From Escherichia coli (GTDB taxonomy: Bacteria > Pseudomonadota > Gammaproteobacteria > Enterobacterales > Enterobacteriaceae): a stretch of 64,000 nt of DNA. Position 1 is the first letter of the stretch. Every line of letters starts with the position of its first letter. The translations under genes were made by a program, and so were the position numbers. The notes under the pieces were generated by a model. The model ran no database searches. It saw only the letters and a list, made by a program, of their open reading frames with translations, and had not been told where the DNA came from. The stretch is taken from the NCBI RefSeq assembly GCF_046105845.1, contig NZ_CP151004.1. One strand, written 5' to 3'. Below, piece after piece: positions 20 to 10,366 of the stretch.

Positions 20-220
20 TCAGGCAGCCTTGTTATTCTGTTCACCAAGTTCTCTGGCAATCATTGCCGTCGTTCGTATTGCCCATTTATCGACATATTT
101 CCCATTCTCCATTACAGGAAACATTTCTTCAGGCTTAACCATGCATTCCGATTGCAGCTTGCATCCATTGCATCGCTTGAATTGTCCACACCATTGATTT
201 TTATCAATAGTCGTAGTCAT
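20..220 (-). CDS. ral: Restriction alleviation protein Ral
   Basis: 66 aa translation (MTTTIDKNQWCGQFKRCNGCKLQSECMV...) recalled as near-identical to lambda Ral; sits downstream of N in the pL operon. Confidence 0.8.
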   Translation of the reverse strand: MTTTIDKNQWCGQFKRCNGCKLQSECMVKPEEMFPVMENGKYVDKWAIRTTAMIARELGEQNNKAA

Positions 221-352
221 AAGGATAGTCCTGGTATTGTTCCATCACATCCTGCGGATGCTCTTCGAACTCTTCAAATTCTTCTTCCATATATCACCTC
301 AAATAAGTGGTTTGCTGCCAAAACAATGAACCATCCGGAAATTCCAGATAGT

Positions 353-580
353 TCATAATTCACTCTTCAATACTTCCAACTTACTAATCGCCGATAGATA
401 TCCGCGCTGATAGGGCATCATCATTCCTTCGAGCTTGACACTTCTTAACTCCTTCCTGAGCAATTGTATTGCTTGATCAATAACCTCTGCCTTAGCGTCC
501 TTTATGGCTTGCTTGCGGGGCTTTGCTTTCTGCTTTGGCAGATTTCTCAAGCATGATGGAATGTATGTCTGATTCATCAC
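353..580 (-). CDS. Hypothetical small pL-operon protein (75 aa)
   Basis: ORF abutting the N stop on the same strand; basic, helical; no family recognised. Confidence 0.4.
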   Translation of the reverse strand: MMNQTYIPSCLRNLPKQKAKPRKQAIKDAKAEVIDQAIQLLRKELRSVKLEGMMMPYQRGYLSAISKLEVLKSEL

Positions 581-853
581 TTACCTCGCTGTCAGTTGTT
601 TTGATTTCCGATAGCCTGCCGCGTAAATAGCTACGTTTGGCAGGCAAATACTTCCACTGCATTCATCTGCCTTCTTGCAGCAAAGGCTTCCTAGTGATGC
701 TGCTTTGTCTGCTCTGACGCAACCAGAGAGCTTTAGCGCAATTTTTCGCGCCAGTGCTTCATTACTGCGTCGCTCGGCAATAAGTTCTGCTCTGCGAGCT
801 TTGTAGCGGCTTTTTGCCGTACCTTTGGATTCTTTCCAGACAATGGTTACCAT
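581..853 (-). CDS. N: Antitermination protein N (phi21-type arginine-rich motif)
   Basis: Contains GTAKSRYKARRAELIAERR, recalled as the phi21 N RNA-binding peptide; AAGGAG Shine-Dalgarno precedes the second ATG (853), so the 883 start in the ORF track is probably an extension. Confidence 0.8.
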   Translation of the reverse strand: MVTIVWKESKGTAKSRYKARRAELIAERRSNEALARKIALKLSGCVRADKAASLGSLCCKKADECSGSICLPNVAIYAAGYRKSKQLTAR

Positions 854-964
854 GATGGTCTCCTTTAAGTGGCTTTGGCGCATGACGCGTCGAGGTGCTT
901 ATCTTCTCGATCGCTGTCTTGCAGCTGCAATTCGCGCCATCCCCAAAACCACTCAAGTTCTGGT

Positions 965-1003
965 CTCAACGGTTAGGTTGAGAGTCCGTCGATGTTAAAG
1001 AGC
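965..1003 (-). promoter_or_regulatory. nutL: boxA (GCTCTTTAACA on minus strand, 993-1003) and boxB hairpin (965-984)
   Basis: boxA consensus read directly; perfect stem-loop TCTCAACGGTTAGGTTGAGA between pL and N. Confidence 0.65.
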
Positions 1004-1048
1004 CTGCCAATCTGTTCCGTTTGGCTTCCAGCGTCCTGCTGATGGCTT

Positions 1049-1110
1049 AAATTTAAGACTTCTTAATTTATTGGTCAAGTGCATTTTTGAAGAAAACTTA
1101 ATTTTATGGG
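1049..1110 (-). promoter_or_regulatory. pL promoter with OL operators (P22 c2-type half-sites TTAAGA...TCTTAA)
   Basis: Minus-strand -35 TTGACC (1073-1078) and -10 TAAATT (1050-1055) with 17 nt spacing; operator-like dyad ATTTAAGACTTCTTAATT overlaps. Confidence 0.6.
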
Positions 1111-1140
1111 CGTGAATTTAGTTTGCCTTTGATTTTTAAC

Positions 1141-1169
1141 GGGAAATAAAAAAGGGGCGAAAGCCCCTT
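1141..1169 (-). terminator. Rho-independent terminator downstream of repressor gene
   Basis: GC hairpin AAGGGGCGAAAGCCCCTT followed by U-run on minus strand. Confidence 0.6.
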
Positions 1170-1818
1170 AAGGAAGGTTTGCTAGCTTGGCATCAACGAC
1201 AACGCCAATGATTTTACAGTTCCCATTGATTTCAATCATTGGGTATTGTGGATTGAGTGGTTTCAGGAATTTTCTACCGGCATCAATAACTAACTTTTTG
1301 AATGTCGCCTCGTTTTCTCCTTCAAGTTTGGCGACTACCAGCTTTCCATTACGTGGTTCGACTTCTGGGTCGACGAGAATAATCATCCCCTCAGGAATAC
1401 TCAGTCCTGCCGGGGCAGTCATTGAATCGCCTTTAACGTCGAGCCAAAAAGAGTCTTCAGAACAATCTACCGTTGTGTCGTACCAGTTATCTATTGCACG
1501 CCTATGATATGGCTCTACAGCTTCCATCCAACATCCTGCGCTTACCCAACTAATTAGAGGATACGAACCTCTTGGATCATGCCTGCTGTGATAGGCAATG
1601 TTTGAAAGACTATCCTCTCCTTTCAACAGGTAATCAGGGGAGCACTGCAAAGCCTTGGCTAAGGCCAATAGGTTTTCGCCATTGGGCTCAGTTTCAGATC
1701 GCTCCCATTGGGAAATAGCAACATTAGACACGCCAACCATCTTGCCAAGGGCAGCCTGCCTAATCTTGAGTTCTTTTCTGCGAGCGCGAATACGCTCACC
1801 CATCAGTTGTGTATTCAT
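1168..1818 (-). CDS. c2: Prophage repressor, P22 C2-like (HTH plus LexA/S24-type C-terminal domain)
   Basis: 216 aa; N-terminus MNTQLMGERIRARRKELKIRQAALGKMVGVSNVAISQWERSE recalled as P22 c2; divergent from cro across an operator region. Confidence 0.92.
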   Translation of the reverse strand: MNTQLMGERIRARRKELKIRQAALGKMVGVSNVAISQWERSETEPNGENLLALAKALQCSPDYLLKGEDSLSNIAYHSRHDPRGSYPLISWVSAGCWMEAVEPYHRRAIDNWYDTTVDCSEDSFWLDVKGDSMTAPAGLSIPEGMIILVDPEVEPRNGKLVVAKLEGENEATFKKLVIDAGRKFLKPLNPQYPMIEINGNCKIIGVVVDAKLANLP

Positions 1819-9880: not shown

Positions 9881-10366
9881 ATGAATAACTTTGTTGAAAT
9901 TACCTCAAGAATTGGTCGCATGTACCAAGATTTTCTTATAAGTGGAAAGGGGTCTGGCGACATCATAGAGGAAATTGACAAGCTAAGTGCAGAGCTGAGA
10001 AGGAATGGGTGTGTTAATTCTATCTTTTTTGAAACTTTGCTAAAGCAAGGCTTCATGTTTGACATGATTAATTACAACAAAGTCGCACCCAGTGCTTCGC
10101 AAAAATCATATGTGTACGTTCTGCATGCTGAAGATAGTGGGCTAACAAAAATAGGGTTTAGTCGCAGGGTTAATAAACGAATTTCAGAGATATCTCGCAT
10201 GAGTGGTGGGAAGCTAAATCTAATTGCAAAGATTCCGGCCGATAGAGAGCTTGAAACCAAATTGCACCAAAAATATTACAACTATAGGTCGCACGGGGAG
10301 TGGTTTAGTCTCAATCGTTGTCATTTGAAAGAGCTAAAAGAAATGCCTGGTAACGAACTGAAATAA
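9881..10366 (+). CDS. T5orf172 / GIY-YIG-like domain protein (161 aa), accessory gene
   Basis: C-terminal half has YVYVL...TKIGFS...R...E...EWF pattern typical of T5orf172 (GIY-YIG superfamily); AT-rich; flanked by terminators. Confidence 0.65.
   Translation: MNNFVEITSRIGRMYQDFLISGKGSGDIIEEIDKLSAELRRNGCVNSIFFETLLKQGFMFDMINYNKVAPSASQKSYVYVLHAEDSGLTKIGFSRRVNKRISEISRMSGGKLNLIAKIPADRELETKLHQKYYNYRSHGEWFSLNRCHLKELKEMPGNELK

Follow-up and report, generated by a model that had tools for sequence, protein, structure and literature searches.

At the left edge of the window, by which we mean the whole 64,000-nucleotide stretch of Escherichia coli DNA analysed here (contig NZ_CP151004.1), lie the ral gene and the genes and control elements upstream of it:

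20..220, minus strand: ral coding sequence, lambda-type restriction alleviation / modification enhancement protein, 66 amino acids (ORF list, BLASTP against lambda, Pfam, PHROG, NCBI)
204..290, minus strand: orf28 homologue, 28 amino acids, MEEEFEEFEEHPQDVMEQYQDYPYDYDY (DNA alignment with lambda and phage 21; PHROG 16060, E 7e-19)
326..356, minus strand: candidate intrinsic terminator, a 14-bp hairpin followed by the U-run UUGUUUUGG (terminator scan, RNA fold)
353..580, minus strand: 75-amino-acid ORF, PHROG 5305 'unknown function', E 5e-37 (ORF list, PHROG)
581..853, minus strand: N antiterminator (Pfam PF25694 N_peptide, E 4e-16; start as in RefSeq BL12)
964..1003, minus strand: nutL, with boxB hairpin 964..983 TCTCAACCTAACCGTTGAGA and boxA 996..1003 GCTCTTTA (transferred from the phage 21 annotation via alignment)
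1043..1132, minus strand: pL including its operators, -35 TTGACC 1078..1073, -10 TAAATT 1055..1050, start at about 1043 (promoter scan)
1051..1068, 1086..1103 and 1115..1132, minus strand: OL1, OL2 and OL3 (phage 21 annotation mapped via alignment)
1168..1818, minus strand: cI repressor, LexA family, imm21 type (Pfam HTH_3 and Peptidase_S24; comparison with phage 21)

Identity of the ral gene

Ral is a textbook accessory gene of phage lambda. The ORF list gives an intact 66-codon frame on the minus strand of the window, running from an ATG at 220 to a TGA at 20 with the stop codon included, and its translated product is MTTTIDKNQWCGQFKRCNGCKLQSECMVKPEEMFPVMENGKYVDKWAIRTTAMIARELGEQNNKAA. The first-pass annotation had placed a lambda-type Ral at 20-220, and these coordinates are exactly those of the ORF with its stop. 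Aligned by BLASTP with lambda Ral (NP_040622, locus lambdap46, the reference product being taken from NC_001416 34087..34287), the window protein shows 64/66 identities and 66/66 positives (E 5e-50). Alignment over the full length of lambda Ral had been named at the outset as the point on which the assignment could fail, and all 66 residues are aligned without a gap. The two protein differences are D39N and K60E, and alignment of the DNA with lambda and phage 21 shows 5 differences from lambda in 201 nt, of which three are synonymous and two non-synonymous. In addition, residues 1-66 align with the complete 66-position profile of Pfam PF11058 ('Antirestriction protein Ral') at 157.1 bits (E 8e-47; gathering score, 25 bits), and PHROG 1055 ('restriction alleviation ral') matches with E 1e-47; among NCBIfam models, none matches Ral or orf28. 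At the level of sequence, the Ral match in 20..220 is far beyond chance. The overlapping ORFs at 30..197 (plus), 112..207 (minus) and 152..358 (plus) are presumably shadow frames.

The exact 66-residue protein is already held by NCBI and UniRef as 'antirestriction Ral family protein [Escherichia coli]', is present on 15 contigs of public E. coli assemblies, and falls in a 90%-identity cluster of 884 members. Relatives of Ral are encoded in 117 records of the phage collection and form two groups, one from lambda and E. coli at 95-97% identity and one from Salmonella P22-like phages at about 73-77%. The exact allele is absent from the phage records searched, where the best match reaches 97%. On these identities, the window allele is a member of the lambda/E. 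coli subgroup. The Ral of P22 and the Salmonella Lederbergvirus phages belongs to the same family and occupies the same pL-operon place in a P22-like genome, but, as a member of the second group, it is much less similar to the window protein.

Organization of the pL operon

The ral gene lies 360 nt downstream of N on the same strand, and its first 17 nt are shared with orf28, the same overlap as in lambda, where orf28 occupies 34271..34357. The window gene therefore shares with lambda ral the product length of 66 residues, 97% identity, four cysteines, the orf28 overlap, the strand and the place downstream of N. Lambda differs in having sieB between N and orf28/ral, where the window prophage has the 75-residue ORF and the hairpin. 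Another close counterpart of this DNA is found in phage 21 and lambda imm21, whose ral ('restriction inhibitor', UMO75463) and orf28 are nearly identical to those of the window at the nucleotide level. Across pL, OL, nutL, cI and the first 64 residues of N, phage 21 is 97-100% identical to the window: cI and the phage 21 cI frame agree at 216/216 residues, nutL, pL and OL1-3 show about 99% identity with the elements annotated in phage 21 (one mismatch in the stretch), and N is identical to phage 21 N at 62 of its first 64 residues, including the arginine-rich motif GTAKSRYKARRAELIAERR. Phage 21, however, is without the insertion of the 75-residue ORF and hairpin, and the C-terminus of its N differs from that in the window. 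The longest ORF for N would begin at 883 on the minus strand. We also observe that the N gene (581..883, minus strand) has an internal mosaic joint, its last 26 residues (…LPNVAIYAAGYRKSKQLTAR) being of another lineage than phage 21.

The module of N, 75-residue ORF, orf28 and ral is also present in phage phi296 and in the lambda-site prophage of E. coli BL12. The 75-residue ORF is annotated as hypothetical in both, and it has no Pfam or NCBIfam match. It occupies a known 'accessory region' that is often home to counter-defence genes. We considered whether this ORF or orf28 might be an accessory gene tested by Silas et al., and rejected the idea on finding neither among their sequences; orf184 of that study, which shares the accessory region with ral and triggers gop-beta-cII, is an unrelated protein of 107 residues.

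The hairpin at 326..356 folds on the minus strand with -23.3 kcal/mol (z -3.9) and sits in a tL1-like position between the 75-residue ORF, whose stop codon it overlaps, and orf28/ral. It is a candidate tL1-like terminator, predicted from consensus-type features, that would make expression of orf28 and ral dependent on N. Its sequence is 100% identical in both relatives that carry it (the BL12 prophage and phi296), and the comparison is therefore without covariation information.

The promoter scan finds no further promoter-like site between pL and ral. Given this result and the shared strand of ral, N, nutL and pL/OL, ral is a gene of the pL operon, as had been proposed at first reading. The window begins 19 nt beyond the ral stop codon, and the remainder of the operon extends past its left edge. 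Within this layout, ral would be transcribed leftward from pL through N, the 75-residue ORF and the candidate terminator. In the lysogen, cI would repress pL, and ral expression would then need both inactivation of cI and antitermination by N, as on infection or induction. Because the imm21 repressor would act on pL, and because N and a terminator-like hairpin lie upstream, we expect ral to be expressed on infection or induction and not constitutively.

The carrier prophage and its host junction

The features of the window that place ral in its larger context, or that were noted alongside it, are the following:

9881..10366, plus strand: MUG113/T5orf172-domain ORF, 161 amino acids, between the lysis genes and the small terminase
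25785..27704, plus strand: P22-type immI-like region, upstream of the tailspike
30204..31382, minus strand: acyltransferase, 392 amino acids (Acyl_transf_3; PHROG 'O-acetyltransferase'), between tailspike and integrase
31699..32892: tyrosine integrase, 397 amino acids (Arm-DNA-bind_3, Phage_int_M and Phage_integrase domains)
33018..33092: tRNA-Arg(CCT) gene argW, directly adjoining the integrase
35328..36575, minus strand: 415-amino-acid ORF in the host flank between mlaA and fadL, strongly matched by PHROG 29678 (unknown function)

Rightward from cro follow cII, replication proteins (with a DnaB-like helicase), nin genes, Q, lysis genes, terminase, portal and coat, and after the coat gene come ejection proteins, an Ant/Arc immI region and the tailspike (27805..30144). 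In blocks, these genes are 95-97% identical to HK620, Sf6 and their relatives. Integrase and argW mark the right prophage boundary. The integrase stands beside the tailspike end because the HK620 attP core lies upstream of int. Beyond argW, the window continues with the E. coli core genes yfdC, mlaA, fadL, fadIJ, sixA, a fimbrial operon, mnmC and fabB, a host segment that matches E. coli chromosomes at 98.5% identity. There is no second copy or fragment of the argW 3' end within the window, and the left prophage boundary therefore lies outside it. By sequence comparison, the element carrying ral is a P22-like prophage of the HK620/Sf6 kind that has an immunity region of the phage 21 type and sits at argW in the E. 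coli chromosome, and the description of the gene as prophage-encoded holds, since the P22-like genome ends at integrase and argW and gives way to core genes. The carrier, a P22-like podovirus with imm21, is itself a difference from lambda. Among the genes examined in the window, no hsd locus was seen, so that this host may lack a target for Ral.

Several other genes in this stretch deserve mention in their own right. The 161-residue ORF at 9881..10366 is possibly a mobile or accessory nuclease-like gene. The immI-like region, in which the Ant anti-repressor (26760..27704, plus strand) has Bro-N and P22_AR_C domains and for which Arc-family genes stand at the equivalent place in the relative VCSW5, appears as a second immunity layer within the argW prophage. 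The ORF at 30204..31382 was at one stage a candidate integrase, an assignment that we rejected when Pfam and PHROG identified an acyltransferase; it may encode an O-antigen acetylase for serotype conversion, comparable to oac of Sf6, and the prophage of strain VCSW5, though otherwise similar, does not have it. On the host side, the 415-residue ORF has no Pfam domain, and in E. coli VCSW5 it carries the annotation 'hypothetical'.

Conservation in the Ral family and the status of the allele

A database search returned 76 relatives of Ral, every one with a Ral domain, and their named sources are enterobacterial (Escherichia, Salmonella, Citrobacter, Kluyvera, Cronobacter, Proteus, Pantoea and Erwinia). 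Conservation was read from an alignment of 23 full-length family members. In the pattern C-x5-C-x2-C-x5-C, C11 and C17 are invariant and C20 and C26 nearly so, and W46, R49-T50-T51, M53-I54 and E57-L58 are likewise invariant or nearly invariant. The window protein keeps all 15 invariant columns together with C20 and C26. Natural members have D or N at position 39 and vary at position 60, and D39N and K60E therefore lie within the normal variation of the family.

These observations bear on the possibility that the window gene is a member of the Ral family that is inert or altered here, either because D39N and K60E inactivate the protein or change its specificity or because the gene is never expressed. 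Such a reading could draw on the absence of this exact allele from the phage records and on the fact that Ral phenotypes are sometimes weak, with little or no gain having been seen in recombineering with EcoKI-sensitive DNA (PMC9410887). The ORF is intact, however, with most of its nucleotide changes being synonymous; asparagine 39 is found in several natural homologues, and none of the conserved columns is lost. Moreover, the exact protein recurs on the 15 E. coli contigs, and the upstream expression signals are the near-identical ones of phage 21. The retention of the conserved positions and the repeated occurrence of the identical protein make loss of activity or a change of target unlikely, and we regard the inert reading as very improbable compared with that of a functional lambda-type ral.

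A phmmer search of the PDB finds no sequence relative of Ral even at E 10. The AF2 model, built from the 23-sequence alignment, is of moderate quality (pLDDT 71, falling to about 50-55 over the cysteine region) and shows a Cys-rich N-terminus of ill-defined structure, followed by a beta-hairpin (36-43) and, at the C-terminal end, a long helix (45-65). Foldseek comparison of this model with the PDB gives nothing better than E 5.8. Because the moderate model has no PDB fold match, we draw no fold-based mechanism for Ral. The cysteine pattern is possibly a metal-binding knuckle. A further variant of the functional reading is that the D39N/K60E allele, in its P22-like prophage of a wild E. coli lineage, has shifted targets, for example a type I family other than IA, or, relatedly, that the cysteine motif forms a zinc knuckle that docks on HsdM. 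We consider this variant a shade less probable even than an inert allele, although docking of a zinc knuckle on HsdM would, if true, be a structural mechanism not yet described.

Relation to other anti-restriction proteins

A functional analogue of Ral is Lar/RalR of the Rac prophage, which is also small and Cys-rich, is encoded in the early-left region of a lambdoid prophage, and is reported to alleviate type IA restriction. RalR is, in addition, described as a DNase toxin whose antitoxin is an sRNA (PMC4041452), raising the question of whether Ral might act in the same way, as a small DNase toxin paired with an antisense sRNA in a type I toxin-antitoxin system. The shared phenotype and composition are consistent with this idea, as is a short common motif, CNGC...W..RTT, found by BLASTP (9/37 identities, E 0.034). 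This 24% identity over 37 residues agrees with the 24% quoted in PMC4041452. RalR, however, belongs to a different Pfam family, PF14354 (Lar_restr_allev), and in a Pfam scan 0/23 Ral sequences match that profile even at E 10. Profile-profile comparison with hhalign gives a probability of 11% over 11 columns, both alignments being shallow, and we have rejected homology between Ral and Lar/RalR as unsupported by these searches. No ralA-like feature is known or annotated beside ral in lambda or phage 21. Moreover, Ral set off no cell death or toxicity in any strain of the ECOR screen (bioRxiv 10.1101/2023.04.06.535777). An action like that of RalR is therefore, in our judgment, the least probable of the alternatives weighed here, its likelihood being very low.

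Ocr of T7 and ArdA of plasmids and transposons are, like Ral, anti-restriction proteins directed against type I restriction-modification. Both are acidic mimics of DNA; they block the enzyme and set off certain abortive-infection systems (PMC3874165; bioRxiv 10.1101/2023.04.06.535777), in contrast to the absence of toxicity seen with Ral in the ECOR screen. Ral is no DNA mimic and instead enhances methylation (PMC3874165).

Predicted action of Ral

The mechanism of lambda Ral is described in two reviews (PMC3874165, PMC12707154), which cite Zabeau 1980, Loenen & Murray 1986 and Kelleher 1991. Methyltransferases of the type IA systems, such as M.EcoKI, are maintenance enzymes, and Ral makes them de novo enzymes. 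Survival of unmodified lambda rises 800-fold within a minute of ral induction, a speed that suggests a direct protein-protein effect, and Ral sensitivity and the maintenance property map together to an N-terminal domain of HsdM of about 150 residues. Type IB (EcoAI) and type IC (EcoR124I) enzymes are unresponsive to Ral (PMC3874165, PMC12707154). In a separate study, a Ral identical to that of lambda was a hit in a screen that sensitised MG1655 to lambda infection (bioRxiv 10.1101/2023.04.06.535777).

We conclude that 20..220 on the minus strand is most probably (roughly 0.93) a functional orthologue of lambda ral, carried by a P22-like argW prophage with imm21 and acting by the mechanism transferred from lambda. 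By this analogy, the protein would target type IA restriction-modification enzymes of the EcoKI/EcoBI family and would turn HsdM2S from a maintenance into a de novo methyltransferase, and the same analogy suggests direct contact of Ral with HsdM. Unmodified sites on incoming or newly replicated DNA would then be methylated without cleavage being triggered, and the outcome would be restriction alleviation together with modification enhancement. The effect would be limited to hosts with a type IA system. The suggestion of the first-pass annotation that the gene could alter host restriction behaviour can accordingly be retained for conditions in which pL is derepressed and N is made, and for type IA systems only (PMC12707154, PMC3874165), but not as a constitutive property of the lysogen.

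Significance

The gene is an ordinary, already catalogued copy of lambda ral in its canonical place, and there is nothing novel about it. The importance of the locus goes little past its correct annotation, the exact protein being already named in public databases, and it provides no special handle on the structural basis of Ral action. For the biology of this strain, what the locus means is that the prophage at argW brings with it a counter-defence gene, one that would be able to help unmodified DNA survive type IA restriction when the phage infects or is induced.
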